Of a stretch of 24,440 nucleotides of DNA, positions 1-24,374 are shown piece after piece. The notes under the pieces are model-generated. The model was not told where the DNA came from, searched no databases, and saw nothing but the letters and a program-made list of their open reading frames with translations. The position numbers were made by a program, and so were the translations under genes. Position 1 is the first letter of the stretch. Each line of letters opens with the position of its first letter. The stretch comes from a virus (taxonomy: Duplodnaviria; Caudoviricetes): IMG/VR virus record IMGVR_UViG_3300038379_000739, positions 1 to 24,440 of that record. One strand, written 5' to 3'.

Positions 1-112
1 AAGCGAAACCCGATGATTTTGAACGACCTCGAAAACCTAATTGGCCGATTTAACGACTTGCTTTTGGAAAAACTCAATTTGCTCAAAATCAAGGTATAAC
101 TGCGCTTAACGT
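1..112 (+). repeat. Exact copy of 21552..21663 (3' end of the YqaJ gene plus the array anchor ...GCTTAACGT)
   Basis: Direct comparison: identical for 112 nt, diverges 2 nt after the AAC core. Confidence 0.97.
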
Positions 113-190
113 TTGCTTCCCCGCCCGTGCTGCGCGTTGAGGTTTGCGCGTTGGCTTGGGCAGCATGGTCGGGGAAGCGGTGTTTCGTGC
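104..190. other. attC-like recombination hairpin A1
   Basis: gcttAAC gttt gcttccccg c ccgtgctgc ... gcagcatgg t cggggaagc ggt GTTtcgtgc. Confidence 0.8.
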
Positions 191-416
191 ATCTTATTTA
201 TTTGGTTTTCAGGGTCCGGACAAAACTTGGACAGGGATTAAGGGTATTTACATCGCTTGTTGGGAGGGCGACCAAATTCAATGGGTAGAGGAAATTTTGA
301 GCAAAGTCAGTTTGGTTCAAACTATGCTCCCCTTCTACGAACAAGAACCCGCCGAGAAACGTGTCAAAATCAAAAATCAAAATCAGTCTGACGTTAAGAC
401 TGGAACAGACGACTAA
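191..416 (+). pseudogene. 5'-truncated gene remnant directly upstream of the XRE-ImmA gene
   Basis: The 144..416 ORF begins inside the hairpin and has no credible start after the cassette boundary. The sequence (GIKGIYIAC...IQWV...KRVKIK) looks like a protein C-terminus and ends 9 nt before the next ATG. Confidence 0.5.
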
Positions 417-425
417 AAACACATC

Positions 426-1487
426 ATGGTAAAGTTCAATTCTGAAATGCTTATTCTGGCTCGTGAGGCACGGGGGTTGTCGCAGGAGGAACTTGCCGCA
501 CAACTTGGAATAAAGCAAGGCACATTGTCAAAAATCGAAAATGGGTACTTAGATGTTTCAGAGTATCTTGACAAGATTTGCGACACGCTGAATTTTCCCC
601 AACTCTTTTTTCTAAGAGAAGGAAGGCGATTTGAGGTAAATACTCATTATTATCGCAAAAAAATAAGTGTTCCTAAAAAAGAACTTTCCCGGGCAAAAGC
701 AATAATCAATATTTTAAAATTCAATATTGAAAAATTGCTTTTGTCTATTGAACTGCCGGAATGTAATCTACCAAAATGGGATGTTTCAAAGAACGGTTCG
801 CCCTCTTTGTATGCCAACTATTTACGGGAATATTGGCGTATTCCAAAAGGCCGGATTGACAATTTGACTTCTTACGTTGAAAAAAATGGCATTATAGTTA
901 TTCATGTAGATTTTGGCACTACTAAATTAGATGGATTAAGCATTTATACCGAAGATAATCAGGCTGTTATTTTTTTGAACAAAGCGTTTCCGGGCGACAG
1001 GATGAGACTTACCCTCGCTCACGAAATCGGACACTTGGGAATGCACTTTTCCCAAATTGTTGACATGGAGCGCGATGTTGAAAAAGAGGCTCCTGAATTT
1101 GCTTCTGAACTTCTTGTGCCATCAAACGAAATTTTGCCACATCTTTCAAGGCTGAATTTGGAAAAACTTGCAGACCTAAAAAGATATTGGAAGGTTTCAA
1201 TGGCCGCAATCCTTTACAAAGCCCAAAAACTAAATCTTGTAAAAGATAATACGGCACGTTATTTATGGACGCAGTTTCGCAAACTGAACTACCATATTCA
1301 AGAACCCGTTGAACTTGAAGTCCCAGTCGAAAAACCAACATTGGTTAAAGAGGTCATTGATTTGTATTTGAATGATTTGGAGTATTCAAAATCTCAGTTG
1401 GCCGATTTGCTTTGTTTAAATTTGGCTGATTTTGAGGATTATTATTTTCAATCAAGGGTCAAGTTTAAAGTCATAATGATGCGTTGA
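426..1487 (+). CDS. XRE-family HTH fused to an ImmA/IrrE-family Zn metallopeptidase
   Basis: N-terminal HTH (AREARGLSQEELAAQLGIKQGTLSKIENG); R.RLTLAHEIGH HExxH motif; LK.YWKVSMAA segment. Confidence 0.92.
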   Translation: MVKFNSEMLILAREARGLSQEELAAQLGIKQGTLSKIENGYLDVSEYLDKICDTLNFPQLFFLREGRRFEVNTHYYRKKISVPKKELSRAKAIINILKFNIEKLLLSIELPECNLPKWDVSKNGSPSLYANYLREYWRIPKGRIDNLTSYVEKNGIIVIHVDFGTTKLDGLSIYTEDNQAVIFLNKAFPGDRMRLTLAHEIGHLGMHFSQIVDMERDVEKEAPEFASELLVPSNEILPHLSRLNLEKLADLKRYWKVSMAAILYKAQKLNLVKDNTARYLWTQFRKLNYHIQEPVELEVPVEKPTLVKEVIDLYLNDLEYSKSQLADLLCLNLADFEDYYFQSRVKFKVIMMR

Positions 1488-1505
1488 TATTTATTTCTTC
1501 TTTTT

Positions 1506-1573
1506 GCACGGAACTGAGGCATGAACGCCGTGCAAGGTTTACGAAGCCTGGGCGGCCATGCTGGGTTAGCCGA
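1506..1573. other. attC-like recombination hairpin A2
   Basis: gcacggAAC tgag gcatg aa cgcc ... ggcg gc catgc tgg GTTagccga; gcacggaac is complementary (1 mismatch) to the cassette start gtttcgtgc at 182. Confidence 0.75.
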
Positions 1574-1584
1574 ATTCTAACATC

Positions 1585-2298
1585 ATGAAAAAACTCCTCG
1601 ATCTATACAGTGGCGCAGGACTTGCGGCAATCGGCTACAAGCAATCCGGGTTTCATGTTACAGGCGTTGACATAGAGAAAAAAACGTGCTATGCTGGTGA
1701 CACCTGGATACAGGCTGACGCGCTTAAAATTTTGGCAGATGTAAGTTTTTGCCGCCAATTCGATGCAATACACGCCAGTCCTCCGTGCCAGAAATACAGC
1801 CAATCAACGGCGATGTTTCGAGCGGCAGGAAAAGTGTATGCAGATTTGATTGAACCGACCCGCGATGCACTTGAATTGATAGGGCTGCCATACGTGATGG
1901 AGAATGTACCTACTGCGCCGGTTCGGCCTGATATTGTTCTACATGGATGGATGTTTGGCCTCAATGTGATGCGCAAGCGACATTTTGAACTTGGCAATTG
2001 GTGGATGATGCAACCGGGAGTAAGCAAGCGGATTGGCTCGGTAAAGGCTGGGGATTTTTGCACCATAATAGGAAAGCAAGGCTACCGAAAATACAAAGGG
2101 TTGCCGAAAAATTGGCGGCCTAAGTTCGACCAGGGTAGCGGAATTAAAACCTGGCATTTTGCTATGGGCATACCGATTCAATACAAGTTCAAGGATGTAG
2201 AAATTGCCGAAGGCATTCCGCCAGCCTATACAGAATACATTGGCGGCTACCTTGCCGAGTACCTGGATCGAGTGGCCACGCTTTCACTTGTCGGCTAA
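1585..2298 (+). CDS. DNA (cytosine-5)-methyltransferase, short phage type
   Basis: Motif I DLYSGAG, catalytic SPPCQ, motif VI ENV, R.R.F; the stop codon lies in the AAC core. Confidence 0.88.
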   Translation: MKKLLDLYSGAGLAAIGYKQSGFHVTGVDIEKKTCYAGDTWIQADALKILADVSFCRQFDAIHASPPCQKYSQSTAMFRAAGKVYADLIEPTRDALELIGLPYVMENVPTAPVRPDIVLHGWMFGLNVMRKRHFELGNWWMMQPGVSKRIGSVKAGDFCTIIGKQGYRKYKGLPKNWRPKFDQGSGIKTWHFAMGIPIQYKFKDVEIAEGIPPAYTEYIGGYLAEYLDRVATLSLVG

Positions 2299-2357
2299 CT
2301 CCAAGCCTGTTGCATTGCGACATTAGGAGCATTGCCAACAGGCGGCAGTTAGCCACA
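2291..2357. other. attC-like hairpin at the backbone start (shared by both arrays)
   Basis: tcggctAAC tccaa gcctgttg cattgc ... gcattg c caacaggc ggca GTTagccac; tcggctaac is the exact reverse complement of gttagccga at 1565. Confidence 0.82.
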
Positions 2358-2404: not shown

Positions 2405-2857
2405 ATGAAAAATTGGCAACCATATGAAATAGAAGATGGCTTCTTGGTCGTCATATTAGACGACCAAGGAAAGCCCATTAGAAAAACCTGCAAATGTGGC
2501 GGGAACAAAAAAACCGCGCTTGAAAACGCTCGCCGCATAGCCGCTTGCATAAATGCGTGCGAAGGGATTGAAACAGAAGATTTAGAAACACGCCCGCCGT
2601 CCACCGGAAGTGTTTTCTGGCTATCAAAAAATTTTCAAAAACTCGGCATTGAAAATGCCGCCCTTCGACAGCAAAACAAGGAGTTGGCAGAGGCATTGAA
2701 AATGATGAAAAAAGTAACCAATGTACTCGGCGCTGGAATTGGGAAAATAAAAACGCCCGACAACTTTTTTGAATTTTGGAACGACACCGAAATAATGGCT
2801 GCAAAAGCAATTGCAGCAAACGCAGAGCCACCGAACACCCAAGCACAAATTCTCTAA
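2405..2857 (+). CDS. Phage hypothetical protein
   Basis: 150-aa ORF with NARRIAACINACEGI, a motif I recall from phage proteins, followed by a coiled-coil segment. Confidence 0.75.
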   Translation: MKNWQPYEIEDGFLVVILDDQGKPIRKTCKCGGNKKTALENARRIAACINACEGIETEDLETRPPSTGSVFWLSKNFQKLGIENAALRQQNKELAEALKMMKKVTNVLGAGIGKIKTPDNFFEFWNDTEIMAAKAIAANAEPPNTQAQIL

Positions 2858-4200: not shown

Positions 4201-4458
4201 TCACGCAATGAATTTCGTGGCCGTTTTGCGAAAGTAAATCGCCAGCGACCCGCCAACCAAAACAAGCGCATCCATCCACCGGCCAGCCTTCAACATCAAA
4301 ACGCCGCCATCCAAATCAGGATAAACCGCCTGCGCGTGCTGCAGGTCGTTCCAGTCAATAACTCCAAAAGAAGCCAGAAAATGAGCCACCGCGCCAGCCA
4401 TCAAAGCCAAAACGGCCTGAACGGTACGGCTTTGGAAAAGTTTTTTTGTTTGTTCCAT
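4201..4458 (-). CDS. Small membrane protein, putative holin (start at MEQTKK)
   Basis: 85 aa, two hydrophobic helices, KK.FQSRT N-terminus, basic C-terminus, last gene of the late operon. Confidence 0.55.
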   Translation of the reverse strand: MEQTKKLFQSRTVQAVLALMAGAVAHFLASFGVIDWNDLQHAQAVYPDLDGGVLMLKAGRWMDALVLVGGSLAIYFRKTATKFIA

Positions 4459-4550
4459 GATATGAGTAGATTTTGATTTCCAAAAGACCGCCCCCGGCTC
4501 GTTCGCCGAGGGCTTGAACAACAAATTATGAAAACCCGTGAGTGAAACGG

Positions 4551-4721
4551 CTATTTTTTCTCATCGCCAACTGGAAGCGTGTTCAACTTATCTTTCAACT
4601 TGTGCAACCGCACGGCAAAAGCCCGCAAATCCTTAGCCAAACCAGCAAGTTCCGTGCTGATTTCTTCTACTTGAGACGCTTCTATCAAGAGCATTTCCAC
4701 TAATTTAGAAATAGAATCCAT
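4551..4721 (-). CDS. Small coiled-coil protein, 56 aa (not in the ORF track)
   Basis: Manual translation MDSISKLVEMLLIEASQVEEISTELAGLAKDLRAFAVRLHKLKDKLNTLPVGDEKK; fills a gap in the operon. Confidence 0.6.
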   Translation of the reverse strand: MDSISKLVEMLLIEASQVEEISTELAGLAKDLRAFAVRLHKLKDKLNTLPVGDEKK

Positions 4722-4767
4722 TTTTCGGCAGTTTAGCCCATTTCAGGCCAAAAACGTGCCGTTCAGG

Positions 4768-7278
4768 TCAATAAACGCTATAAAACTGCATTGTCGCAAT
4801 CTGTGCGCTTCGGATCGTTGTGCCTACGCTCTTCCAAATGCCCGCTCGCTGACCCACCGCCACCGCACTTGGCAAATTCGATGACACCCGCCCAGCATAA
4901 GCGCCATTCACATAAAAACGCGCCTCGGTCGCCTCGTCGGCATACACCACCGTCAACAAATAAAGCGTGTTGGCAGCAACTGTAATACCCAAATCCACCG
5001 TACTTTCTGTGCCACTATTGTTTCGACTATAACCCTCGAATTTGCCAGAATTTATGCCGCTCGAATATCGAATTGCAACCGTGTTGTTCACAGCCAACGT
5101 CATGCTATTCGGTGAAGGAACAAACCCAAACTGAAACGTATAAGTCTGCGTTCCGTCGCTCAACGTCGGAAAATAAACCCACGCGCTCGTCGTCAAATGC
5201 GCAGAGGTATAGTAAGAAGGATTGAGAACAGTTTTGGAAAAATAAAGCGTCGCAGCGCCACTGGCGCTCGATGCTGTGTTCACCTCCCACGTGCCGGGAA
5301 AACTCGCCGAGCCTGCAACAGTGCCGTTGCCGCCGCCCGAAATCCCAAACCCAACCGTCCCCCAGTCCGCGCCCGTTGTAGCGCCAACCGATTCGAAATA
5401 GTGGTGTCCTTTCACATTCAGCGAAGGGTCGAAAGTGTTGCTCACAACAACCCACCGGCTCAACGTGCCGTCGTACTCGATGACAGACGACCCGCCAACC
5501 TGCAAAATGTAGTCCTGTCCGCTCTCCGAACACGCCACGCGCTGCGCAGCAGTACCACCAGCATGTTCGCAGGGAATGTAAATCGGATAAGAACCGACAT
5601 TCCGCAATTTCTTTTGCTCGCCGGAAGTAGCCGCAGCGAACGACTGTATACCGAAAAAACCGCTCGCCGAGAGCCGGACAGTCGTAGCGTCGTCCCACCC
5701 GGTCGGCGCATAATCGGTTTGAGTGACGGTAATCTGGCTCGGCGTTATCACCGATGGCGACGAGCCCCCACTCGGTGTCGCCCAAGTGCCATCTCCGCGC
5801 CAGAATGTCGAACCACTTGCGCCAGTACCGCTATTCAAGTTCGTCACCGGAAGATTGCCGGTCACATCGGCACTCGCAAGGTCAACCGACCCGTTCGCCA
5901 ACTCAGTGCCTGTCACAGCATTGGTCGCAATCTCTGACGAGCCAACAGCGTCCGCAACGATTTCGTCAGACCCTACCCCATCCGTCGCTATTTCCGTAGC
6001 CGTCACACCACCATTTGGAATATTGAAACTGACATCCGTTTCGTCGTTGCCAGAATCATCAGTAAGCGCTGCATTAATAGTAGACGTCGTTACGAAATTC
6101 AAGCCAGTCCGCGCAGTCATCGCCGAACCGTCATCTTTGATAGTGTGACCACCAGCGCCACCGCTCGGAGTCGCCCAAGTGCCATCGCCGCGCCAAAACG
6201 TACTACCCGAAGCACCCGACCCCGAGTTGAGATTTGTAACTGGCAAATTACCCGTCACGTCAGCACTCGCCAAATCCACCGCGCCAGTCGCCAACTCGTT
6301 GCTGCTAACCACGCCCGCGTCAATCTGCCAGTTGGTCCCGCTACTCGAAACAATGATGTCGCCCTTATCGCCATCACTTGTGCCGCCAGCCACGCCGTCC
6401 ACATAGGCTTTATCGGTCAACCAACGCGCAGTTGAACCGCTTGAATGGTCGGAAATATAATAAAGCCCATTCTCACCTATCAATAAGCGCAACGTCGAAG
6501 TCGTCGAGCCAATCGGCGTTACCCAAAACTCAATCTCGGTGCCTCGGGCAGTATTTGTCCATGTTTCAGTGGAACGGGCAAGCATTTCAGCGCCAACACC
6601 AAGAGTAGATGATACACCACGGGACTTCCACTGAGTGCCGCCAAGAATATGATTATCTTCCAACGCAGCGCCATCATTTGTGACCTGCAACAGAATTGGA
6701 TTCGACGGCAATGTAGCCACCGTACTCGATGAAGCGTTTTCGCTGCGCTGCAAAACATACGCAGAGCCGGAAGTAAATTGCACATCAAAAAGCCCACCAC
6801 CGCCATTCATATTAATTGCCGCGCCAGCCGCACCATTGCCAATGCCAAGCGCATCGTCAATGACAACAGTAGATGGCAATGTAAACGAAACGCCACCAAC
6901 CGAATGAGTTACAGAAACCTTATCTGACGTGCCACTAAGCGTTTTCCACTCACCAGCCGTCGCACCAGAATTAACGCCCCACACCCGATTCGCAGAGCCA
7001 AGCGTGTTCGGCAAAACGACAGGGTTGGCCAGCAACACCCACGTTGAGCCGGTCGAATGATAGTAAAGTAGCTTATTCGTATAGTCCCACGCAATTTTGC
7101 CACCGTAAGTCGTCGGAGTCCAATTCGGCACAGCATCGGTGTGTGGAACACTCGCCGAATACTGAATGCCGGAAAAATCCACAGACAACAACGGCGCCCA
7201 GCGCGCAGGTTGATATTGACCGAAAGCAAAGGCCGCAACCGCAAGAAAAAAGGAAAGGAAAAGTAGTTTTCTCATCAA
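4768..7278 (-). CDS. Large fibre/adhesin-like protein with an N-terminal signal peptide
   Basis: 836 aa, G/S/T-rich; AVT..EIA repeats; duplicated ~46-aa module; beta-rich C-terminal domain; N-terminus [21 protein letters not shown]. Confidence 0.7.
5768..6297 (-). repeat. Two copies of a ~137-bp module within the fibre-like gene (5768..5904 and 6161..6297)
   Basis: [44 protein letters not shown] occurs twice; DNA differences are mostly synonymous. Confidence 0.85.
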
Positions 7279-7730
7279 ATAAGACGTTTTGTAAGTGAAC
7301 CATAGGCTGCGCGGTCATGTCCACTCCCAGCCCAATAAGCATCGCCAATATCCAAACCATCCGCTTGAGCCGCTTGGTCGCTGTCATAAGTCCCCAAATC
7401 GCCCAACGTTGGATTTCCGGTGCTAAAACTCGCAGCATGAGCCTCTACGAAAACAAATTGCCCCGAAGTTGTATCGTCAAGCCAATACTGATACCAGTAG
7501 TAGTTTTTGCCGCCATACACGAAATACCAGTTCGGCCATTCATCCTCTCCAATCAGCACGGTAGGAGTGCGAATCAAAAAACCCAACGCACCGGAAGTCC
7601 AATATGTAAATTCAGGAAAGGCTGAAATTTGCGCCCAAATTTCCGTGTCAGCAGTGACAAGGCTCACGACCGTGCGAAGCGTCACACGCCGATTCATTGC
7701 GCCAATTTCAACCTTTGTCGGGAACGACAT
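7275..7730 (-). CDS. Head-closure (SPP1 gp16-like) protein with a C-terminal extension
   Basis: [10 protein letters not shown]...IWAQI N-terminus and position after the connector gene; extra [19 protein letters not shown] tail. Confidence 0.55.
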
Positions 7731-7755
7731 CTTTACTTAATTTTTACTCAATTGT

Positions 7756-8373
7756 TCACTTGTGAACTCGATATGGGTCAATCAGAGTTTTTACAATCAT
7801 ATCATCATCGTTGTGGCCGCTACGGAAATTGTACCAAGAGCCAATGAGCCGCCGCATCGCCTCCCTCAATCCGCCCGGAATATTGCTGCCAGCCGAGCCA
7901 TAGCCAGCATCATACACAACCTTTATCGCATTGGTGTAAGGCTCGATTGGCGGCCAGTCTACACCGGATGCCTTGCAAATCCGCGCAGGACCTTGACCAT
8001 TTAGACCAGAAACAAGGTCAGAAAAGTAATTAGCCGAATTCCACGTTGTGTAAGATGAAGGTGTTCCGCCAGTAGCAATATAAGAAACACTCGTAATTAT
8101 GCGGACTGGCGCAATGTACAACTTCAAAACCCTGCTATCCAACGCTTTAGGGTTTGGCGGCAAGGGCGGAAATTCATCAAAATATTCCGTAATGGATTGA
8201 TTTATCAGTGCGCGGGCAGTGGCACGCTCTACAACCATTCGAGCGTCACGAATCATCGCAGTTATCAAATCATCGTCCGTTGTCACAGTTGAATCAACTT
8301 TCAAATAAACCTTCATCTCCGCAACCGTGAACGGCTCCGACGCAGGCTCACTATGTACTTGCCAAACTGCCAT
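7756..8373 (-). CDS. Head-tail connector (gp6/gp15-like)
   Basis: PASEPFTVAEMKVYLKVD...DDDLITAMIRDARMVVE..T.RAL; Y.AGYG; position in the head module. Confidence 0.85.
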   Translation of the reverse strand: MAVWQVHSEPASEPFTVAEMKVYLKVDSTVTTDDDLITAMIRDARMVVERATARALINQSITEYFDEFPPLPPNPKALDSRVLKLYIAPVRIITSVSYIATGGTPSSYTTWNSANYFSDLVSGLNGQGPARICKASGVDWPPIEPYTNAIKVVYDAGYGSAGSNIPGGLREAMRRLIGSWYNFRSGHNDDDMIVKTLIDPYRVHK

Positions 8374-8430
8374 TGGTCAGAAATTTAAAAGCGGCTGCCG
8401 TCAGTCGCCCAACAACAGCCGATACCCGCG

Positions 8431-8652
8431 TTATTTTTTCGATTCTTTTTCGGCAGCCACCAAAGCGTCATAAACATCGGCCTCATCTTTCGTGGCAAGG
8501 CGGCAAACACCGAGCGACTCGAGGCCTTTTTTGATGACCTTGCCCTCCAATTTTTGGTCGGCAAAATCTTCGGCAATCACTAAGCCGGTTTCCCCAGCGA
8601 TATAACCGTAACCATAAGCCGTTCCGGCCTTGAGAAAAAAAACTTTTTTCAT
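8431..8652 (-). CDS. Small capsid-adjacent protein
   Basis: 73 aa between the capsid and connector genes. Confidence 0.65.
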   Translation of the reverse strand: MKKVFFLKAGTAYGYGYIAGETGLVIAEDFADQKLEGKVIKKGLESLGVCRLATKDEADVYDALVAAEKESKK

Positions 8653-8697
8653 GGAAAATTTTCAGTTTTAATGTGAAAAATGAGTTCAAGCAGCCTT

Positions 8698-10074
8698 TTA
8701 TGCCGGATTGATTTCGTTGCAAATACAGAACGACGCCGCGTGTTTTACAGCCACGTCCCACCACGAGTTGACGATGAATTCAACAATGGCTTCTTTGCCT
8801 TTCGTATAGGGATTGATAAGCAGTTCGACACCACCCCATTGACCAATCATCAGTTCTTCCCAATTGCCAAAAATCATCGCATGCAAAATGCCAGACGACG
8901 CGCCTTTCGACAAGGTACTGGGCACTTGGGTAGAAACACGTGCTTTATAGCCATTGATGTCGCCGGTATCGCCGTTGTTGCCGGTCCAAATAAACTGTGC
9001 GGTTGAAGATGCTTTTTCAGTCGTTTTCAGTTTTCCCGCAACGGCAGGAGTAGTCAGATAAGCCAGTTTGCCGAAATCAGCATTATCGGTTGCCGTCTCG
9101 GTTTCAAAAAGGACCGTCAACGCCCAGGTCAAAGGCCCGCCGTCCGTTCCAATCGTGATGTCATTCACGCCGGAAGTGTTCAGGATGCCAAGCGGTTGGT
9201 CGGAAGAGCCAGAACCATTGATGGCTGCCGAATCCAAAGCCTTGCGAACAGCAAAGTTGAGCCGTTGACGAACAAAGGTTTCCATGGCAATTGTCGTTTG
9301 CCGAAGGTTCTGCTTCGAGACATCTGTAAAAGCGCAAAGACGTTCAGGATTCATCTGCACACGGTCGAATGTTGGCGAGGTTTCGGTTGCACTGGCAACT
9401 TCCGACGCCCACAAAGCAGCCGCGTCCGCATCATTGCGTGGGAAATCCATGTTGTCACGCAAACCACGCATCACCGTTGCGCCCAATGCTTCCACTTGCA
9501 ATTTCGGCTCGAGTATCGGAATCAGTTTTTGAACGGAGGTTTGAACGGTAAAGCCGCCAGCGGTCGTCGTTTCAGCCAGAATGTCGCGCTTTTCGGTTTC
9601 AGAATAGCCACCAACGAGCATTTCAGGGAGAACGAATTGCTCGCTTGAGCCGGGCAATTTTAGCGCGCGGACTTCTTTCAGGCCTTCTTGGTGCATTTCG
9701 GCTTCCAAACCGTCGAGACGTTCGTTACCTGCCAAAATCTGGTAGGCACGAATCAGACGGAACTCATCGCGCTTTTGCCCCCACTTGTCACCAATGCGGC
9801 CATGCGGCAACACATTGATTGTCACCGGCAACTTGTCGTCCAAGTGCCGTTGCTCGGCCAACTTCGATTCGATGCTAAGTTTTTCTGTCAAATCGTCGTA
9901 AATTTTCAGCGCGTCATCGTAATTGCGCCGCTCCGTGTCGAGCAACAAACGGTCGGTTTCTTCATTCCAGTCATCAGTGCCAAGCCGGCTTGTGACTGCG
10001 TTGAAGTTTTTGAGTGCAGTCGCCCGTTGCTCACGCGCTTTTTTCAGGGCTTCGGCGGTTGATGTTTGTGACAT
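8698..10074 (-). CDS. Major capsid protein, HK97 family
   Basis: N-terminal coiled-coil delta domain; AGGFTV, INGSGSSDQPLGILN, IFGNW, D.AVKH..SF motifs. Confidence 0.95.
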   Translation of the reverse strand: MSQTSTAEALKKAREQRATALKNFNAVTSRLGTDDWNEETDRLLLDTERRNYDDALKIYDDLTEKLSIESKLAEQRHLDDKLPVTINVLPHGRIGDKWGQKRDEFRLIRAYQILAGNERLDGLEAEMHQEGLKEVRALKLPGSSEQFVLPEMLVGGYSETEKRDILAETTTAGGFTVQTSVQKLIPILEPKLQVEALGATVMRGLRDNMDFPRNDADAAALWASEVASATETSPTFDRVQMNPERLCAFTDVSKQNLRQTTIAMETFVRQRLNFAVRKALDSAAINGSGSSDQPLGILNTSGVNDITIGTDGGPLTWALTVLFETETATDNADFGKLAYLTTPAVAGKLKTTEKASSTAQFIWTGNNGDTGDINGYKARVSTQVPSTLSKGASSGILHAMIFGNWEELMIGQWGGVELLINPYTKGKEAIVEFIVNSWWDVAVKHAASFCICNEINPA

Positions 10075-10086
10075 TTTTTGAAAAAT

Positions 10087-10728
10087 TTATTGGTGAACAA
10101 AGCCCCGAAAGCCGATGAATTTCTCCACCTCCAACTTCCGAGAATTAAGTAGTTTTTGTACTTCTGTCAGTTCATGGATGTCGTCGTCGGGAAAATCGAA
10201 ATTGCGAACATTAGTAGTTGTAATGGAATAGGCGGGCGTTATCACTGGCCCCAACTCTATAATGCGAGGAAATCTTTTAATGCTACGCAAAGGAATTTCA
10301 CCTTCTTTGCTCAAATCATAACAATCTGACGGAAGCGGCAAAAATTGGAACGACGAACCTTTGGCATCGCGGCGCTGGATTCTGCGGTAAGCCGAACGAT
10401 GGCTTGGGTCCTCTTTATCGTAATCAAACTCGTACCACAATCCACGAGCGTCCACGCCATAGCGAAGCGTCGGCTCAGCCGCCAAAAAATCAACGTGGTC
10501 AAAATGACACCGAACATCCGAAAAATCGGTTTCATTAAACGCGCCCGGTAATATCACTTCAACAAACTTTTGTCCTTTTTTTGTCATCAATGTCCGGCTG
10601 CGCACATTGAACAACGCCGCGTAGCCATACACGACCTGTTTGCCGCCTTCGACACTACGGATTTCCGGTGCCTCATCGGTAAAAAAAGGCTCATTGTTGA
10701 GGAGCGGGTTTGGGTTGTTTTTTTCCAT
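10087..10728 (-). CDS. Prohead protease, HK97 family (probable start MEKNN)
   Basis: GYAALFN, F.EVILPGAF, DH, D.RGL, GSSF.F, ELGPV..PAY motifs. Confidence 0.92.
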   Translation of the reverse strand: MEKNNPNPLLNNEPFFTDEAPEIRSVEGGKQVVYGYAALFNVRSRTLMTKKGQKFVEVILPGAFNETDFSDVRCHFDHVDFLAAEPTLRYGVDARGLWYEFDYDKEDPSHRSAYRRIQRRDAKGSSFQFLPLPSDCYDLSKEGEIPLRSIKRFPRIIELGPVITPAYSITTTNVRNFDFPDDDIHELTEVQKLLNSRKLEVEKFIGFRGFVHQ

Positions 10729-12082
10729 TTTCGTCAGTTTTACCTTCGGCTTCGCCGCCGAGACTTTTACCGCCAACGGCTTTTTCGCCTTCGGCACTCA
10801 AATATTTCGCAAATGCTATTCTCAAAGCGTCTTTCAATGGCAGAAGATTGATGTCAACCATTAAGTCGTCGCCACCTTCAACAGGCGGCAATCCCTTGCG
10901 TTTTCTTGCTTCATTTGGAGTTATTTGGGTAGCGCGAATTCCTTCGGCAAGCATAGAGGATTCGGCGGCTTCATCTTTACTCACATACAGGCTCGTATCG
11001 AACTCAAAAAGATACTCGCTTTGCTCACTGTCGAAAAAAGCCTTTGTCTTGATTTCATCTTGAGTTTTTTCAAGCCACGGGCCGAGACAATGTGTAAGAA
11101 AATCCAACGAACGTTGCACACCAGCGCCATACGTTCCTTCTGCACCCAACATGAGCAAATCCCTCGGCACTTTGGTTATCCGACACACATCCTCAACGTT
11201 CATTGTACGAACGGCTTCCAAAGCCACATCAAGCGGACTCCATTGCAGATATTGGACGTTTTGACCCTTGGGAATGACAAGCGGCCTGCCTGCGTTGTTT
11301 GAGCCGCCAATCCGCGCCATCACATTATCTTCTACATTCTTGACCTCAGTCGGGTCCAATTCTTGGTCAATACTTATCGCAATACTTGGAAAAGCGCCTT
11401 TGCCCATCACGCCAGCAGAATACCGCGTAGAGGCAATTCCTACTCCATGCGTATCACGATGAAGCCACTCGGTTTGCAAACCATTAATTCCATCGAGTGA
11501 CAGCCCACGAATATGAATCATATCAGTATAAGGCAGCCGCTCAAAAACCGAAAATTTTCCATTCATCGAACCACTTATCAAGTACCAAAGCGCTCCACTT
11601 TCATCAAATTCAGGCCGCACATACATAGACGGGATATGCTCAAACCACATCGGCCTACCAGTTTGTTCGTCCCAATGAATTTTTGCATAACCATTACCTA
11701 AACAGGCGTTTGTAAGCAACGCACTGAAAAAATCAAACCATGAGTAGTAAGGGTGAGGCCGTCGCTGAAAAAAATCATACATCGGATGGTCGGTAGCCTC
11801 CTCCAATCCGTCTTTTGTTCTCCGCTTGACTGTACGGTCAAGCATCGAAATCCCTTCCGAAATATACCGAACGGCTGAATAAAATGGGCTTGTACCCAAC
11901 ACCGCCTCCCAATTTACCTCGACATCCGCCAACGTGGTAGAGCCAAGATTGAAATACTTCCAAAAATACGGGTCTTGAAGCGTGTAGGAGCGCTTTTCAG
12001 TCGCAGGCGCTTCTGTTTTTTCCTCAACAAGCCCCAAAGATTGAGACTCGAACCATTGTGTAAGAAAGGAGTTCCAAGCCAT
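10691..12082 (-). CDS. Portal protein, HK97 family (probable start MAWNSF)
   Basis: GNGYA.I, MIHIRGLSLDGING, GGSNNAG.P, ITPNEARK..GLPPVEGGD motifs. Confidence 0.95.
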   Translation of the reverse strand: MAWNSFLTQWFESQSLGLVEEKTEAPATEKRSYTLQDPYFWKYFNLGSTTLADVEVNWEAVLGTSPFYSAVRYISEGISMLDRTVKRRTKDGLEEATDHPMYDFFQRRPHPYYSWFDFFSALLTNACLGNGYAKIHWDEQTGRPMWFEHIPSMYVRPEFDESGALWYLISGSMNGKFSVFERLPYTDMIHIRGLSLDGINGLQTEWLHRDTHGVGIASTRYSAGVMGKGAFPSIAISIDQELDPTEVKNVEDNVMARIGGSNNAGRPLVIPKGQNVQYLQWSPLDVALEAVRTMNVEDVCRITKVPRDLLMLGAEGTYGAGVQRSLDFLTHCLGPWLEKTQDEIKTKAFFDSEQSEYLFEFDTSLYVSKDEAAESSMLAEGIRATQITPNEARKRKGLPPVEGGDDLMVDINLLPLKDALRIAFAKYLSAEGEKAVGGKSLGGEAEGKTDENGKKQPKPAPQQ

Positions 12083-12129
12083 TTCAATGCAAAACTCCAC
12101 CAGAATTAAGCCAAACCAAAAATTTTAAG

Positions 12130-12369
12130 TTAAACAGTTTTAATTGGGCGAAATCTTGCCCTGTGTGGATTGCGAGATTTGCTTGCAGAGAACGAAAGGT
12201 AGGTAGAGTAGCGCATAACCCCATGCTGTTCACGAAGTTCACTCTCAACGCAATTTAAAGCGTTTTTCATTGGAGCACGTTCGTTGCGTTTTTCCGCAAC
12301 CAACTCCCGAAACCTTTTATTGTAACCGTCGTTTGTCTTAAGGTCGTGCATCTGCCATGAGTTTTTCAA
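12130..12369 (-). CDS. Small basic hypothetical protein between terminase and portal
   Basis: ORF fills the gap in the operon; start uncertain. Confidence 0.6.
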   Translation of the reverse strand: MKNSWQMHDLKTNDGYNKRFRELVAEKRNERAPMKNALNCVESELREQHGVMRYSTYLSFSASKSRNPHRARFRPIKTV

Positions 12370-13585
12370 GTTCAGCAGGAGGCAATGCGAGGTAGAGCCG
12401 GCTTTTGCGTTTCAAATAAGTTACCGCCCAATACCTCGCAGCGTCCCAAGTGTGATTGAAAGCGTCAACAGGAACATTCAGAATTCTGCCGCTTTTGTCC
12501 ACACGAAACATATATTTCAACCGCTCACGCAACATATCAACGCTGTTTTGTGTAACGTGCAGGTTGTAAGAGTTCAACAAGGTTATTCCGTGTGTCACGC
12601 TATCAGGTCCTTTTTTTGCAGGAAAAATATTGAGACGCATCGATTTCAAATGTTCGATTGCCCACTCACCAGCAGAATCAGCCACAACAGGGAAACGCCC
12701 CACCCCACTCGACAACATAACTTCTCCCATTTCCTGAGGTGTCATGCCTCGTTGGTAAAAAACTTGATTGAAATACACGTCTTTTTCGTTCTGAAAACCA
12801 CACTCAATAAGCGTTGTAATACCATTACTATACCCGAAGTCCATGCCAAACCCACGATACTTGAGATTTTCAGGCATTTTTTCCACGATTTTGATATTCG
12901 GAAAAACCAACCCGGTTACTTGCCCATATTCTCCAAGCCCATAAACCCGCCAGTAATTCAAGTCTTCGGTTTCCAACAACTCAATTTCCCGAACTTGCGC
13001 AGATGACAAGTAAGGATTGTCTCGATAGGTGGAAATAATGGTTTCTACATCATCTTCCGTCACAGCACGACCCAACTCAAGTTTCTCACGCGCCCATACA
13101 TACGGGTCAGATGGATTGAAATCAATTATCATTAGTTCTTCCGTACGCAACTTGAGTTGAAGCACTTCTAAATCCCAATCCAATTCATTCGCTTCATTCA
13201 ACCATGTTATCGTTGCAGCAAAACCCCTGATTTTTTGTTCATCATCAGCGCCAAAAAATTCTACCATGCGCTTTCCACATCGATACTGCCGCCGCTGATT
13301 ATTCACTTTCACGAAACGACGAAGACCACAAGTGTCGAGGGCTTTTTCAAAATCCCGCATCACGGTGGACTCCAAAGTGGTTTTATACTTACGAACAATC
13401 GCCGCATTGCCTGTTGGTATATGCTGTTTCTCCCGTATTTGCCCAGTCACAAGCCACACCGCCAATTGCTGACAAATCGAAGTGGTCTTACTGCTTCGCG
13501 TCCCACCCCGATTTATCACCCAACGTTTTTCAGGCGAAACTTTCCAGTTCCGCAAAAAAACCGGCGTGACTTTCAAATTATTCAT
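12338..13585 (-). CDS. terL: Terminase large subunit, PBSX/SPP1-like (probable start MNNLKV)
   Basis: Walker A GGTRSSKT, Walker B WLNEANE, FNP, GMDFG, DSA, NHTWDAARY. Confidence 0.95.
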   Translation of the reverse strand: MNNLKVTPVFLRNWKVSPEKRWVINRGGTRSSKTTSICQQLAVWLVTGQIREKQHIPTGNAAIVRKYKTTLESTVMRDFEKALDTCGLRRFVKVNNQRRQYRCGKRMVEFFGADDEQKIRGFAATITWLNEANELDWDLEVLQLKLRTEELMIIDFNPSDPYVWAREKLELGRAVTEDDVETIISTYRDNPYLSSAQVREIELLETEDLNYWRVYGLGEYGQVTGLVFPNIKIVEKMPENLKYRGFGMDFGYSNGITTLIECGFQNEKDVYFNQVFYQRGMTPQEMGEVMLSSGVGRFPVVADSAGEWAIEHLKSMRLNIFPAKKGPDSVTHGITLLNSYNLHVTQNSVDMLRERLKYMFRVDKSGRILNVPVDAFNHTWDAARYWAVTYLKRKSRLYLALPPAELEKLMADARP

Positions 13586-13973
13586 CTTGCTCAAACACGT
13601 TTTGTTCAACAATGAACTTGAAACCAACCAAAGGAAGTTCGCTGTTTTCATCATCAAGCAAAAGAGGCCTGCCATACGCAGTTTCAGAAAGCCACTTTGC
13701 GGCTTGAACGTCATGTTTCGCTCGTTTCATTTGTTCCAACACGATTTCCTTCACCTTCGGCATTTTTACCCAGACTTTCACCTTTTGATTTGTGCGACCA
13801 CCCTTACCATCACACAAAACGCCATCCATAAGAAAATAATCATCACCGCTTTCAGCAATTTCACGAATAATCGCACGAAAAGGATTGCGTTTGCGTCCAG
13901 CCCCTTCTAAACCGGCATCGCCCTTTTCTCGCACTATAAGCGTTCCACCATTTCTTCCCTTGACTTGTTTCAT
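13578..13973 (-). CDS. Putative terminase small subunit
   Basis: Overlaps the terL start; KG..G..GAGRK N-terminus and D.QAAKWL..TAYG.P helix. Confidence 0.65.
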   Translation of the reverse strand: MKQVKGRNGGTLIVREKGDAGLEGAGRKRNPFRAIIREIAESGDDYFLMDGVLCDGKGGRTNQKVKVWVKMPKVKEIVLEQMKRAKHDVQAAKWLSETAYGRPLLLDDENSELPLVGFKFIVEQNVFEQDE

Positions 13974-18012: not shown

Positions 18013-18700
18013 CACTTTTTTAAAAAAAAATTACTAAAAAATAATGGCGCGCCCCTCAGTTGTCAGCCCTGCTTCGCCATTCCGCTAACGCACCTTTCGC
18101 GTCGCCTCTCCTTCGTCAAGCGAACGCTTAGGTGCGAACGCTCCAAGTCTTGCAGCGCTTCCGACATCGGGTCGGGCTGCTACGGGTTTCGCTTCGCTCC
18201 AGCCACGTCAGACGTGGTAAAAAAACCACGTCCACGTGTCCAAGCCCTCCGCATCCCTCGCGCAAAACACCAACACGCGCAAACCTCAACAAAAAAGCCA
18301 CACGCGGCAGCCTACCGACCTCAACCCCAACTCAAAAGCCCGCTTGGCAGCCGCTTACACAAAACCTCAACTACAAACCAGCCAACACGCATTTGCGGCC
18401 TGCGAATCCCTCGCGGCTCAACACGGTCGGCATCGGCGGCTCGGCGGCGTAGGCTCGCGGCAGCCCGCGCGCTTCGGCGGGCTTATTGCCGCAGCCAGCG
18501 CGCCGCAACACTCGCCGCCTTGCCTCCACCAACATAAAATTTCGGGGTTTAGGTTTTTTGGGGGTTTGTGTTTTGTCGTCGTCGGCTTTCGCCGTCGCCT
18601 GTTTGCTATTTTCAGCGTTTTTGCGCTTTTTATTTGGTTTTCTCGTTGGTTTTCGTTAGTTTTGTCTTGCGTTTCGGCTTTTTCCCCGTCGCTTTGTCCC

Positions 18701-19279
18701 GTGTCAGCCTCTCTTTTCGCCCCTGTTTCCTCGCTCGTTTCGGGCTTTCCGGTTGTCGGTGTTTCCGGCTGCCGTTCTTGCGCTTCCGCTTCCGCTTCCG
18801 CTTCCGCGTTCGTTTCTTCCCTTCCGGCCTCCCTTCCTGTTTTTGTGGGCTGCGCTTCCGGCGTGGATTCGGCCGCACGCGCTGCCCGGCCTTCCGCCCG
18901 CGTGTTTCGGGTTTCTGTTTCGGGTGGCTCGCCGTCGTTCGGTGGCGCTTCCGGTCGCGCGGCCTTCGCCGCTCGTTCGGCTGCTTTCTTGGGCGCTTTG
19001 TCCGCTTCTGGTGGCCTGCTGGTTTCTTTTCCGTCGCGGCCTTGCCCCGCCGCTTGCGTTCCTTCTCGCTCGTTCGCTGGTTTTGGCTCCGGTTCGTGGG
19101 GTTCTGTCTGCATGGCGCTTGGGCTTGGGTTGCCCGTGCTGGTTTTCGTTCCGGCTTCGCTCGGTCCGCAGTTTCCCGCCCCCGCGCGTGTTCGTTCGCG
19201 TTTTTCCCTTGTCGCTTCGCTTGCTTCCGGCTCGTGGTGGCTTGCCGCCGCCGCGCCGGCGCCGCTTTCTTTGTTTTAG
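18701..19279 (+). CDS. DprA/Smf-like SLOG-fold protein encoded by adenine-depleted DNA (probable GTG start)
   Basis: VGVSGCR, VFVGCASGVD, AFAARS, LVSFP, GSGSWGSV..AL.LG.PVLVF follow the DprA/SLOG Rossmann motif order; same frame as ORF 18236..19279. Confidence 0.65.
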   Translation: MSASLFAPVSSLVSGFPVVGVSGCRSCASASASASAFVSSLPASLPVFVGCASGVDSAARAARPSARVFRVSVSGGSPSFGGASGRAAFAARSAAFLGALSASGGLLVSFPSRPCPAACVPSRSFAGFGSGSWGSVCMALGLGLPVLVFVPASLGPQFPAPARVRSRFSLVASLASGSWWLAAAAPAPLSLF

Positions 19280-20858: not shown

Positions 20859-20870
20859 CGGAGGTTGTTA

Positions 20871-20905
20871 GCCCCGCGTTTGCGCAATGCGGCGCGGGGT
20901 TTTTT
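20871..20905 (+). terminator. GC-rich hairpin with T-tract
   Basis: gccccgcgtt tgc gcaat gcg gcgcggggt ttttt. Confidence 0.55.
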
Positions 20906-20927
20906 CTCTTTCTCAAACTCTTTTGCC

Positions 20928-21650
20928 ATGCTCTACAGAAATTTTGAAATCCATCCAAGCCTAAGATTCGATAGCGCAGTTCCGTCAAAAGCCACCAACG
21001 TCGTTTTATCCGAACTCCAAGCCGCCGAAACGACGCTTTCCGAATTCCAACGCGAAAGGCTCGGCAAAATCACCGCCTCGCGCTTCGGCCTTATCAAGCC
21101 CCTGAAAAACGGCGAATGGAGCGAAACCGCATTGTCATACCTGTACGACCTATTAGGCGAACACCTCACCGACCAGCCGTCACAGACATTTACCGGCTCG
21201 GACGCGACCGAATGGGGAAACAAATACGAAGCCCAAGCCATCAATGAGTACACAAAACGCACAGGCCGCAAAGTGCAACAACGCAACACGTTTATGCAGC
21301 ACCCGGAACTGCAATTTGTCGGAGGCACACCCGATGGATTGGTTGGAGAAAAAGGCTTGATTGAGGTGAAATGCCCTTTCACATTCAAAAACCACCTTCG
21401 CACAGTCGTTACCCGCATAGTCCCCGACGAGTATTTGGCGCAAGTTCACGGGCATTTGTGGCTGTCAGGTCGCCAATGGTGTGATTTTGTGAGTTACGAC
21501 CCGCGTATTCCAACCAAACACAAACACGCAAGGCTTGTCGTCATTCGTGTCAAGCGAAACCCGATGATTTTGAACGACCTCGAAAACCTAATTGGCCGAT
21601 TTAACGACTTGCTTTTGGAAAAACTCAATTTGCTCAAAATCAAGGTATAA
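20928..21650 (+). CDS. YqaJ/lambda-exonuclease family recombination nuclease (probable start MLYRNF)
   Basis: RLGKITASRF, WG..YE..A, GGTPDGLV, IEVKCP, Y.AQV, WCDFVSYDPR. Confidence 0.92.
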   Translation: MLYRNFEIHPSLRFDSAVPSKATNVVLSELQAAETTLSEFQRERLGKITASRFGLIKPLKNGEWSETALSYLYDLLGEHLTDQPSQTFTGSDATEWGNKYEAQAINEYTKRTGRKVQQRNTFMQHPELQFVGGTPDGLVGEKGLIEVKCPFTFKNHLRTVVTRIVPDEYLAQVHGHLWLSGRQWCDFVSYDPRIPTKHKHARLVVIRVKRNPMILNDLENLIGRFNDLLLEKLNLLKIKV

Positions 21651-21654
21651 CTGC

Positions 21655-21720
21655 GCTTAACGTGAGCGTGAGCGCTGTGCGACGTATAGGAAGCATAGAC
21701 GCACACGCATAGTTATCTAC
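21655..21720. other. attC-like hairpin B1
   Basis: gcttAAC gtga gcgtgagcg ctgtgc ... gcatag a cgcacacgc ata GTTatctac. Confidence 0.8.
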
Positions 21721-21744: not shown

Positions 21745-22110
21745 ATGAACAGATATTTTGAAGGAGATAAGCAAGTCACCGCCGAAATATGTGCGCAACC
21801 AGAGCCAGATAAAGTGGTTTTGGCTTGGGCAAGCCGGAAGCGGCATTTGTTTGTCAACGGCGTTTTGTTGTGCGAAAAAAAGCACAAGACAGGTGACGGG
21901 TATAATCACAAAGGCGGGCATTATATGTCGTACCAACTTGAATTTCCAACATGGGAAAAGAAGGCGCCTGATGAAAAATATGCACATCTTGACGGGATAA
22001 TACCTGCGAAGCCGCTTGATGAGATAGGCGGAATTATCCGTTCATCCATTTGCTCCGCTTGCCAAAAGCGATACGACAAGATTTTTATGCCTACTTCATT
22101 TTGTAGATAA
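21745..22110 (+). CDS. Cassette B1 hypothetical protein (121 aa)
   Basis: Fills the cassette; stop TAA lies in gtagaTAAc; C-terminal CSAC motif. Confidence 0.75.
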   Translation: MNRYFEGDKQVTAEICAQPEPDKVVLAWASRKRHLFVNGVLLCEKKHKTGDGYNHKGGHYMSYQLEFPTWEKKAPDEKYAHLDGIIPAKPLDEIGGIIRSSICSACQKRYDKIFMPTSFCR

Positions 22111-22193
22111 CTGATGCATTGCTGATGTGGCGGCGTGGGTTGGCTTTGAGCGTTGGCTTTCGCCGCCATGTGCAGCAATGCTTTGTTAGCAGA
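22103..22193. other. attC-like hairpin B2
   Basis: gtagatAAC tgat gcattgctg atgtggcggcg ... cgccgccatgt g cagcaatgc ttt GTTagcaga; gtagataac is the reverse complement of gttatctac. Confidence 0.85.
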
Positions 22194-22279: not shown

Positions 22280-22954
22280 ATGAAAGTTCAAGCAATCCGC
22301 ACCGACAAAGGCAATTTCCTTGCAAACTACAACGGTTATTTTTTCTTCGTCGGCAGCAACCGAAAAACGCCCCTTCGCATGAGCAACGCAAGCGAATTTG
22401 AAAACGCTTTGGCAAATTGGGGTCAAGTGGAAGAACCTCTCCACATTTCCAAAATCAGGGAAATAATCGAATTGTCGGCTATGTCGGCTAAAATCGGTTG
22501 CTACGTTGACTCCATGAGCAAAGCCGATTTGTCGCAACTCTACATCGAAAATTTCCGCGAAGAATTTTCGTATGTGAACAACGATTTTAATTATGTCGTT
22601 GGCTTTTACGCCAACGGCGAGTACCAAAAGTTTTCGCCAAAGTGCGGCAAAGGCACGTTAGAGTATGGCAATTTCGGAACACCGACTTCGTGGGACGGTG
22701 AAACCTACGTCGAAACGCTGCAACGGTTCATCGCCAAAACTTCGACTTACCCCGAAGTGATGGTTGTTAAAAATTCAAATCACGACAGCCGTCAAGGTGA
22801 CAGGTACAAATCCGAAATTCACGCCTACGTCCTGCCTTCGCAGGAAGCAATTGAGGCGTTTTTCGGCAGCGTACTCGAAGCCTACGAAACGCTGAAAAAA
22901 ATGCCTACTGCCTTTATTCTTGTATTTATTATTTTCTTTTTTTATTGCGGCTAA
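22280..22954 (+). CDS. Cassette B2 hypothetical protein (224 aa)
   Basis: Fills the cassette; stop lies in the core site. Confidence 0.75.
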   Translation: MKVQAIRTDKGNFLANYNGYFFFVGSNRKTPLRMSNASEFENALANWGQVEEPLHISKIREIIELSAMSAKIGCYVDSMSKADLSQLYIENFREEFSYVNNDFNYVVGFYANGEYQKFSPKCGKGTLEYGNFGTPTSWDGETYVETLQRFIAKTSTYPEVMVVKNSNHDSRQGDRYKSEIHAYVLPSQEAIEAFFGSVLEAYETLKKMPTAFILVFIIFFFYCG

Positions 22955-23037
22955 TCTGGCACTCACGCAGCCCCGCCCTGTTAGGCTTTCGAGCGCGGGC
23001 ATTGGGCGGGGTTGGCGTTGAGTGCATTGTTCGACGA
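22947..23037. other. attC-like hairpin B3 (degenerate core: AAT instead of AAC)
   Basis: gctAAT ctg gcactca cgc agccccgccc ... gggcggggtt g gcg t tgagtgc att GTTcgacga. Confidence 0.75.
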
Positions 23038-23067: not shown

Positions 23068-23099
23068 TTGCGCGAAAACAAAAAAAGTGTTTACCTTTG
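23068..23099 (+). promoter_or_regulatory. Bacteroidota-type promoter inside cassette B3
   Basis: TTG-N21-TACCTTTG, 19 nt upstream of the ATG at 23119. Confidence 0.65.
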
Positions 23100-23118
23100 T
23101 GTCATAAATTTTTTTAAA

Positions 23119-23499
23119 ATGGCACACAGAATCAATACTCGAAATTTTGAAAACGGCATGGATAGCCGCCTCGAAACTGCCGACTGGAAAAAATATATTT
23201 CACGCCATTGCCAATTTTGGTCAAAGGCTGAAATGATGGATGCTTTTGGCAATGACCCCGCAGCAAAAAAGGCGATTGAGGCAAAGTTTTCTCCATTTTT
23301 GCTCGGAGAACACCTTTACTACAATTTGCCAGACGGTCAATCGCAGGTGTGCGTCGGCTACGTTGATGAGCAATCGGAAAGAGGCTATTACATGATTCAA
23401 CTTGCCTCCGAATTTGGTGAGGACTGCGAAGTGTGCAGGGGTAAAAAAGCGGCGTGTGAACGCCTGTTTGAAATCTACCAACAAGCGACGGCGGCATGA
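23119..23499 (+). CDS. Cassette B3 hypothetical protein (probable start MAHRIN, 126 aa)
   Basis: ATG after promoter and AT-rich leader. Confidence 0.72.
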   Translation: MAHRINTRNFENGMDSRLETADWKKYISRHCQFWSKAEMMDAFGNDPAAKKAIEAKFSPFLLGEHLYYNLPDGQSQVCVGYVDEQSERGYYMIQLASEFGEDCEVCRGKKAACERLFEIYQQATAA

Positions 23500-23846
23500 G
23501 CGAAAAAAAGCGCGGCGGCGCGGGGCGCGGGCAGGGGCGAAAGCCCAAAAAGGACGGAGAAAAACTTGTCAAGCGGCAAGTTTTTTTTCGCCCTGACCAA
23601 CTCGAAAAAGTGATTGGCAGAAACTTGTCTGACCACATCCGGCGAATTTTTGACCACTTCCACGATTTGGAAGCGCAACCCGAAAAAAAGCAATTTGTCG
23701 AACCAAGTCGAAAAAACCATTTTTGGGTTGGTGGCGACACCTGTATTTTTTGCGGGGTCAAAAAGGTCGGGAAACAATTTTTCGATAAAAATGAAACGTT
23801 GTTACCTTCAAAACCAGACTGCACAAAAGCATTGACGAAATTCTGA
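23496..23846 (+). CDS. Cassette B3 putative DNA-binding protein
   Basis: ATGA overlap with the previous gene; RGGAGRGQGRKP N-terminus followed by an RHH-like segment; CIFC near the C-terminus. Confidence 0.65.
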   Translation: MSEKKRGGAGRGQGRKPKKDGEKLVKRQVFFRPDQLEKVIGRNLSDHIRRIFDHFHDLEAQPEKKQFVEPSRKNHFWVGGDTCIFCGVKKVGKQFFDKNETLLPSKPDCTKALTKF

Positions 23847-23865
23847 TATTTATTTATCTTTTGTT

Positions 23866-23932
23866 TCGTCGAACTGAAGCATCCACGCTGCGCAACGTAT
23901 AGGCAGCGTTGGCGGGGATGCAGGGTTGTCAA
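23866..23932. other. attC-like hairpin B4
   Basis: tcgtcgAAC tgaa gcatcc a cgc ... gcg g ggatgc agg GTTgtcaa; tcgtcgaac is the reverse complement of gttcgacga. Confidence 0.8.
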
Positions 23933-23960
23933 TATTTTTTCACACTCTAAAACAAAAAAA

Positions 23961-24305: not shown

Positions 24306-24308
24306 TTG

Positions 24309-24374
24309 TTGACAACTCCAAGCCTGTTGCATTGCGACATTAGGAGCATTGCCAACAGGCGGCAGTTAGCCACA
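24309..24374. other. attC-like hairpin at the backbone start, second copy
   Basis: ttgacAAC is the reverse complement of gttgtcaa at 23925; hairpin identical to 2297..2357. Confidence 0.82.

Follow-up and report, generated by a model that had tools for sequence, protein, structure and literature searches.

An integrase-less array of attC-type cassettes in a phage, with genes on the bottom strand and sites akin to those of Saprospirales chromosomal arrays

To our knowledge, integron cassettes have been assumed to have a single polarity, and recombination of attC sites has been assumed to require the IntI insertion. In the classical integron, exemplified by IntI1 and attCaadA7, the sites have AAC and GTT cores, a 6/5 spacer on the bottom strand and bulged bases in the right arm, the ends of cassettes are complementary, and it is a textbook rule that the bottom strand is recombined within AAC (Nivina, 2016; PMC5027507). 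The IntI insertion is described as essential, yet not fully conserved (Smyshlyaev, 2021; PMC8138268), and recombinases near attC sites that are without it are not counted as IntI (Cury, 2016; PMC4889954). In the IntegronFinder 2.0 survey, one complete integron was reported for Bacteroidetes proper (PMC9024848). Integrase-less clusters of attC sites (CALINs) have already been published from virulent phages (Qi, 2023; PMC9892861), anti-phage genes are reported to be stored in chromosomal integrons (bioRxiv 10.1101/2024.07.02.601686), and the de novo formation of cassettes has been described as largely unknown (Loot, 2017; PMC5371416).

The stretch of DNA analysed here (the window) is one complete virus record of 24,440 nt, and its array resembles the phage CALINs of Qi (2023; PMC9892861) in that attC sites without an integrase are found in a phage, carry methylase cargo and imply a host enzyme. 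However, phage TJE1 of that study has the canonical polarity, whereas all cassette genes in the window lie on the bottom strand and natural swaps are seen. At PH101_attC2 of phage H101 (L437:2027-2089), the strand that was taken as the bottom one is the annotated coding strand of both neighbours, which are hypothetical genes; this IntI1-validated site may itself be inverted, apparently without remark in Qi (2023; PMC9892861). Compared with the classical integron, the genes of the window are antisense to the top strand, the sites have one bulge about 7 bp past the spacer and none at 3 bp, and the element has no attI, Pc or intI. The inverted-integrase integrons of Treponema are alike in that the recombinase gene of the likely host also faces its array, but there the term refers to the orientation of the integrase gene and not of the cassette genes, and Treponema integrases have the IntI insertion whereas the Saprospirales enzymes do not (Cury, 2016; PMC4889954). 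Chromosomal arrays of Saprospirales (Bacteroidota) have the same site family and the same crossover rule as the window; their polarity is canonical, whereas that of the phage is inverted. A literature search, with most subscription journals outside its scope, returned no description of inverted phage arrays or of this insertion-less Bacteroidota system. What the window adds is a natural mapping of the crossover, a direct tie in sequence from inverted phage sites to canonical chromosomal sites, and cargo genes that have been cut.

Profile matches identify a capsid protein, portal, prohead protease, terminase, head-tail connector, YqaJ and a helix-turn-helix protein, which is probably the replication initiator. 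Positions 1-112 duplicate 21552-21663 (the 3′ end of YqaJ, with the copy of the gene end at 1-99), and the final 127 nt duplicate 2297-2423. The phage is also present in contigs from a single public run, which is possibly the source of the window and is treated as a second assembly, not a second sample. These contigs fork exactly where the terminal repeats begin or end, with depths of 9.1 for array A, 6.4-11.2 for array B and 13.1-15.8 for the common backbone. The contig is thus a circle of about 22 kb (21,551 or 22,017 nt) in two genotypes that differ solely in the array after YqaJ. That the two repeats represent two loci on one molecule was ruled out by depth; the assembler had unrolled alternative genotypes of a single locus. 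One site of the same type also occupies the corresponding place in G001, a terminally repeated relative (22,149 nt; terminase 68%). Relatives of YqaJ have only 34-44% identity, and a model scan of 9 among 80 such loci gave zero sites.

Some features of the genome lie outside the array. The region 4204-13714 encodes capsid, portal, terminase, connector and one 836-aa fibre-like protein, with no tape-measure or tail-tube gene recognised, and G001 is similar; this genome of about 22 kb may belong to a short-tailed phage or to a capsid-forming satellite. The region 18236-19279 is pyrimidine-rich with an extreme strand bias (AT skew -0.8) and has long open reading frames (ORFs) overlapping on both strands without a family match. 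An Rfam scan of the window gave six matches, every one under its gathering score.

Table 1. Features of the cassette array in genotypes A and B (positions are those of the window).
Feature	Positions	Strand	Match or score
YqaJ-like exonuclease gene, constant left neighbour of the array	20865..21650	+	PF09588, E 9e-27
Constant entry core ending in AAC, then either of two hairpins	21655..21661 (copy 104-110)	+	
Site A1, long hairpin, bottom-type strand on +	108..184	+	38.5 bits
Cassette A1 cargo: 3′ part of a chromosomal gene and a whole XRE-ImmA/IrrE gene (426-1487)	185..1511	+	PF06114, PF01381
Site A2, short hairpin belonging to the methylase cassette	1512..1567	+	27.2 bits
C5 DNA methylase gene; stop codon contributes to the next AAC core	1585..2298	+	PF00145
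Last hairpin of the array (AAC 2297, GTT 2348), common to both genotypes	2291..2357 (copy 24308-24374)	+	
150-aa ORF after the last hairpin, without closing core	2405..2857	+	
Site B1, short hairpin, bulged A in right arm	21659..21714	+	45.6 bits
B1 gene; stop codon sits in the next core	21745-22110	+	
Site B2, long hairpin	22109..22187	+	56.7 bits
B2 gene, 224 aa, cut near its 3′ end, runs into T-rich cassette tail	22280..22954	+	
Site B3, long hairpin, damaged core	22953..23031	+	20.2 bits
B3 cargo, two genes, TAnnTTTG promoter-like motif at 23092	23068..23846	+	first gene: homologues 58-66%
Site B4, short hairpin	23872..23927	+	29.2 bits
B4 gene	23961-24305	+	homologues 32-51%

Counted from the first base of AAC, the sites start at 108, 1512 and 2297 in genotype A and at 21659, 22109, 22953, 23872 and 24314 in genotype B (Table 1). 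The motif at 23092 is one that we take to be a Bacteroidota-type promoter motif. To judge from its absent closing core, the 150-aa ORF is probably a fixed former cassette. No related loci were found for the B1 gene, the B2 gene or the 150-aa ORF (for the last, in viral contigs), so the hairpin at 2291-2357 is not traceable with its downstream gene in another genome. Sites are absent both near the distant homologues of gene B4, for which 6 of 19 loci were scanned, and near the 81% homologues of the methylase. A minus-strand ORF of 346 aa (23132-24172) that crosses site B4 was treated as a shadow because the + strand genes there have homologues.

The + strand layout of the sites is AAC, 6 nt, a 7-bp stem whose right arm usually has a single bulged base, and 5 nt ahead of GTT, and the AAC and GTT cores that close the imperfect hairpin are intact in seven of the eight site copies. 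The exception is the site at 22953, where the core reads AAT and is one base short. The sequence-only reading had noted that, wherever the core is intact, the left spacer exceeds the right by 1 nt, and this holds in seven copies (six by scan, that at 1512 read from the sequence). It had also placed the unpaired bases in the right arm; this stands for five sites (21659, 22109, 22953, 23872 and 2297), and at A1 (108-184) the usual bulge position is empty. The hairpin at 2291-2357 folds with z = -5.5 against 200 shuffles, five weaker sites (z -1.1 to -3.0) are not significant by folding alone, and folding energy cannot distinguish the two strands. A loose geometric scan gave 8 hits in the window, 6 of them inside the arrays, against 0-3 in five shuffles. 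Covariation was seen at 19 of 22 pairs over 56 sites, in an alignment that was itself fitted to the model.

Membership of the attC family, and the strand, were addressed with a covariance model built from nine chromosomal sites only, a better test than folding or the geometric scan. This recovers all eight window site copies on the + strand (18.6-56.7 bits, E 1e-11 to 0.02), with a top minus-strand score of 15.8 and no matches in a class 1 integron. The 6/5 spacer asymmetry of the attC bottom strand is found on the + strand of the window. A class 1 control has the bottom-type geometry on the non-coding strand at two of the three sites found, the other being ambiguous, and this control together with the aadA7 primer (Qi, 2023 supplement; PMC9892861) equates the + strand geometry of the window with that of an attC bottom strand. 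The extra base of the L″ box (G16 of aadA7/VCR) is absent: bulges fall at 3 and 9 in class 1 sites and solely at 6-7 in those of the window. On this comparison the window sites are a subtype without the 3-bp bulge, one that chromosomal sites have in common with them. The right core of a site and the left core of the next are complementary over 9 of 10 nt in five of six cassettes and over 7 of 10 in the other. Averaged over 33 phage inserts, 8-9 of 10 nt are complementary between cassette ends, compared with 6 for the core of the same site (p 4e-6). Core complementarity was considered as a test of polarity and discarded; it fits either polarity and shows only that these are cassettes. In layout the array is a CALIN, with three sites in genotype A and five in genotype B, all on a single strand, less than 4 kb apart and with no integrase nearby. 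It is not a complete integron, there being no intI and attI beside it: PF00589 has zero matches in the whole window and recovered 14 of 14 controls. Nor does it have classical cassettes, in which the gene lies 5′ of attC on the top strand, as its genes are on the bottom strand behind the hairpin. From its sequence, then, the array appears to work like integron cassettes, being a CALIN by layout and not classical by gene polarity.

The position of the crossover can be read from present-day variation in the array. The YqaJ-side copies are identical through AAC (108/21659) and 2 nt beyond it and then enter two different hairpins, and the copy of the last hairpin at 24314 is the same from AAC onward and different ahead of it. 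In the run, other upstream DNA joins the hairpin at 22953 (loose end there), and an 878-nt contig departs 8 nt past the AAC that follows the B4 gene into a third, related hairpin (loose end 24324). Hence, of four junction swaps in one sample, three break at the AAC core or no more than 2 nt away, and the fourth 8 nt into the hairpin. The methylase cassette is also present in two 40-kb phages (L093 and L094; 96% and 94%). Over the 40 nt that lead up to the closing AAC, its three copies show 1-2 mismatches; over the 40 nt beyond AAC they show 24-30. The hairpin upstream of the methylase has 0/52 mismatches between L093 and L094, with DNA ahead of it that differs at 24 of 40 positions, and site A2 is 65-67% like it. 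Across phages, the hairpins of four pairs that share only downstream DNA are 100, 96, 67 and 65% identical, the last two falling within the background of hairpin identity (median 52%, 95th percentile 71%), and those of five pairs that share only upstream DNA are 46-52% identical.

Taken together, these junctions bear out what had been read from the window alone. One upstream gene with two hairpins and two upstream cassettes with one hairpin, meeting at AAC, recur in the window repeats, the run contigs and the methylase cassette of three phages; the travel of each hairpin with its downstream gene is seen in the four swaps and again in the methylase cassette; and both the model hits on the + strand and the mapped crossovers place the site 5′ of its gene, with the coding strand as the bottom-type strand. 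Genes that keep their downstream hairpin were sought, and in none of the five upstream-sharing pairs was the hairpin shared. The methylase cassette of three phages and the two co-occurring genotypes are exact substrates for the standard assay.

The cargo and the sites both point to Saprospirales. The closest relatives of the XRE-ImmA gene in cassette A1 come from Saprospirales genomes (78% and 70%), site B2 (22109) is 84% identical to a chromosomal site of G091 when the latter is read on its bottom strand (58% on the opposite one), and phage sites are up to 84-88% identical to chromosomal ones. From this similarity a Saprospirales host is probable; neither a prophage nor a spacer ties the phage to it, and terminase relatives were not found in genome contigs. 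With a wider covariance model, sites were detected in 54 of 101 genomes of the Saprospirales family, and chromosomal hairpins likewise follow the DNA on the GTT side (17 vs 17 pairs, nearly all from one array). A pattern built from B1 and B4 had no matches; two degenerate patterns, which mostly match by chance, led to 8 of 23 and 1 of 41 viral loci that passed the geometry scan, and among genome loci 2 of 120 were examined, both from Saprospiraceae.

Phage and chromosome differ in polarity. Chromosomal sites outside the training set (n = 29) comprise 14 canonical, 0 inverted and 15 unclear; a further 111 chromosomal inserts, 99 of them from one genome, comprise 23 canonical, 1 inverted and 87 that are gene-less or less than 60% ORF. 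Gene-filled chromosomal inserts are thus canonical in 23 of 24 cases, the exception being an ISKra4 transposase. By contrast, the sites of other phages (n = 18) are inverted in 13 cases, canonical in 0 and unclear in 5, and 31 of 33 phage inserts from 9 records are sense on the bottom strand (Fisher p 3e-6 vs 21 host inserts, inserts of the same array not being independent). Orientation was not selected for in the phage set, since both strands were scanned in the searches that yielded these loci. Chromosomal arrays turned up no inverted phage cassette, and no cassette was found in exactly the same form in both pools. The phage pool has genes of the opposite polarity, carried on sites of the kind that make up arrays with an insertion-less enzyme at their head.

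The sequence-only reading had taken the reversed polarity to suggest a distinct cassette system or recombinase family. Special chemistry is not needed: the classical rule likewise puts the crossover in the bottom-strand AAC, as do the chromosomal arrays, so the gene is inverted and the reaction is not. Judged from site geometry and mapped junctions, the + strand of the window is an ordinary attC bottom strand, and "inverted" describes gene orientation. The proposal of another recombinase family falls in so far as it relied on reversed chemistry, but may hold for another reason, since the IntI insertion is missing from the recombinase found next to the chromosomal arrays. In the Saprospirales genome G002 a 548-aa tyrosine recombinase is followed by a conserved junction and then by cassettes on the same strand, and G091 has the same layout. 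The chromosomal recombinase scores 220.6 bits against TIGR02249, below the cut-off of 265, and is annotated as "site-specific tyrosine recombinase/integron integrase", with NF040815 also below its cut-off; the insertion of IntI1 in the catalytic domain is a gap in all four chromosomal recombinases aligned. Insertion-less homologues occur in 69 of 151 genomes of the Saprospirales family and a true IntI in 1 of 151 (G049). The host-type recombinase has 50% identity to TnpF-like proteins on Acinetobacter and environmental plasmids. A search of five other array phages with one host-type query, which is blind to distant enzymes, found no such recombinase (0/5); two array phages (G005 and G006) encode weakly matching tyrosine recombinases (E 5e-10 and 1.5e-8), about 10 kb or more from their arrays.

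The reading that we prefer, and consider quite probable, is that of an integrase-less phage array of attC type, with genes on the bottom strand and a hairpin that precedes and travels with each gene, which is likely to be shuffled in trans by a chromosomal recombinase of the probable Saprospirales host. The folded + strand would be cut within AAC like any attC bottom strand, which the natural junctions fit, cassettes would leave and be taken up in circular form through attC x attC junctions that lie between YqaJ and the final hairpin, and early-operon transcription of the phage would read them. From site kinship and prevalence, the catalyst on the phage array is likely to be the insertion-less tyrosine recombinase that heads the chromosomal arrays. 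The same inverted cassettes could instead be recombined by the canonical IntI of some host, as IntI1 recombined five of six phage attC sites in the account of Qi (2023; PMC9892861) and G049 has a true IntI. We think this unlikely, given the rarity of IntI beside the insertion-less type in the genomes counted above, and given that the window sites do not have the class 1 bulge 3 bp into the stem and match those of arrays with the insertion-less enzyme at their head. A distinct cassette system that has its own recombinase and reverses the choice of strand, as the earlier reading had it, would fit the opposite polarities of the phage and chromosomal pools and the failure to find a shared cassette. 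However, phage and chromosome use the same strand and the same AAC crossover relative to the site, their sites reach the identity given above, and no recombinase was found in the window or in the five other array phages (with the one host-type query, which a distant enzyme would escape), which makes such a system distinctly improbable. Action on the sites by a recombinase that a helper or co-infecting phage supplies is very improbable: G005 and G006 do encode tyrosine recombinases, and the genome is small with no tape-measure gene seen, but those matches are weak and distant from the arrays, and the sites are host-like. Least credible is the absence of any site-specific enzyme, with microhomology mosaicism at terminator-like hairpins or an assembly artefact in its place, for although the contig is an unrolled bubble, the phage has a YqaJ exonuclease and T runs follow several hairpins, the breaks fall at AAC in three phages that were assembled independently, cassette ends are more complementary to each other than to the core of their own site, and the strand asymmetry is kept.

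Two cassettes carry cut genes, whose junctions are of use for the study of de novo cassette formation. The A1 cargo begins with the final 76 codons of a 281-aa Saprospirales gene (71% identity to residues 206-281 of L098), followed by the gene that neighbours it on the chromosome, and no hairpin or site is found at the chromosomal copies of this cargo (L098 and L099). An ATG within hairpin A1 is in frame with the cut host gene (144-416), and site A1 could supply its start codon. The B2 gene diverges from all six aligned homologues 3-4 codons before their stop and then enters its T-rich tail. In 30 nt of such tails, long-hairpin phage cassettes average 16.2 T (n = 10) and short-hairpin ones 10.4 (n = 23; p 3e-4); the average is 17.4 for gene-filled chromosomal cassettes (n = 23), whose tails are the A-rich leader read backwards. 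In short-hairpin cassettes the leader is A-rich and the closing core often contains a stop codon; by these features they look streamlined, and the long-hairpin ones recent. A cassette of G207 has the same first bases as A1 and a different cargo. These patterns suggest, and no more than suggest, that cargo was replaced within host cassette frames and that selection then favoured the orientation read by the phage operon: AT-rich spacers could arise by convergence, and all donors are too distant for the junctions to be fixed. It is possible that A1 and B2 are snapshots of cassette formation, in which cut genes sit inside host-like ends. A broader scenario, put forward tentatively and in our view rather doubtful, is that of a private phage pool on host sites, in which DNA is pasted antisense into host frames (A1 and B2 being caught mid-way), polarity acts as a firewall that silences host defence cassettes in the phage array and phage cassettes in the host array, and all is run by the insertion-less tyrosine recombinase. 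By analogy with the anti-phage genes of chromosomal integrons, which offer a testable motive for the reversal of polarity in phages, a firewall against host defence cassettes may be a further reason to keep the polarity.

Several observations concern individual arrays. The core at the 22950-22956 junction of the window is short by one base, another contig has AAA there, and AAA is seen in L093 too (L156 near 2000); recombination at sites with damaged cores may be error-prone. In G060 (C1, about 3.39-3.82 Mb; L190, L450-L455) a huge array behind an insertion-less recombinase has many repeated gene-less cassettes of about 465 nt with 130-nt sites, and in G002 one reversed site lies between the recombinase gene and the first cassette (L152:19156-19215). 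Finally, G207 has a gene-less cassette (L427:16117-16168) whose entire insert forms a perfect inverted repeat of 22 bp, both cores included; it resembles a fold-back product and hints at how complementary ends arise.
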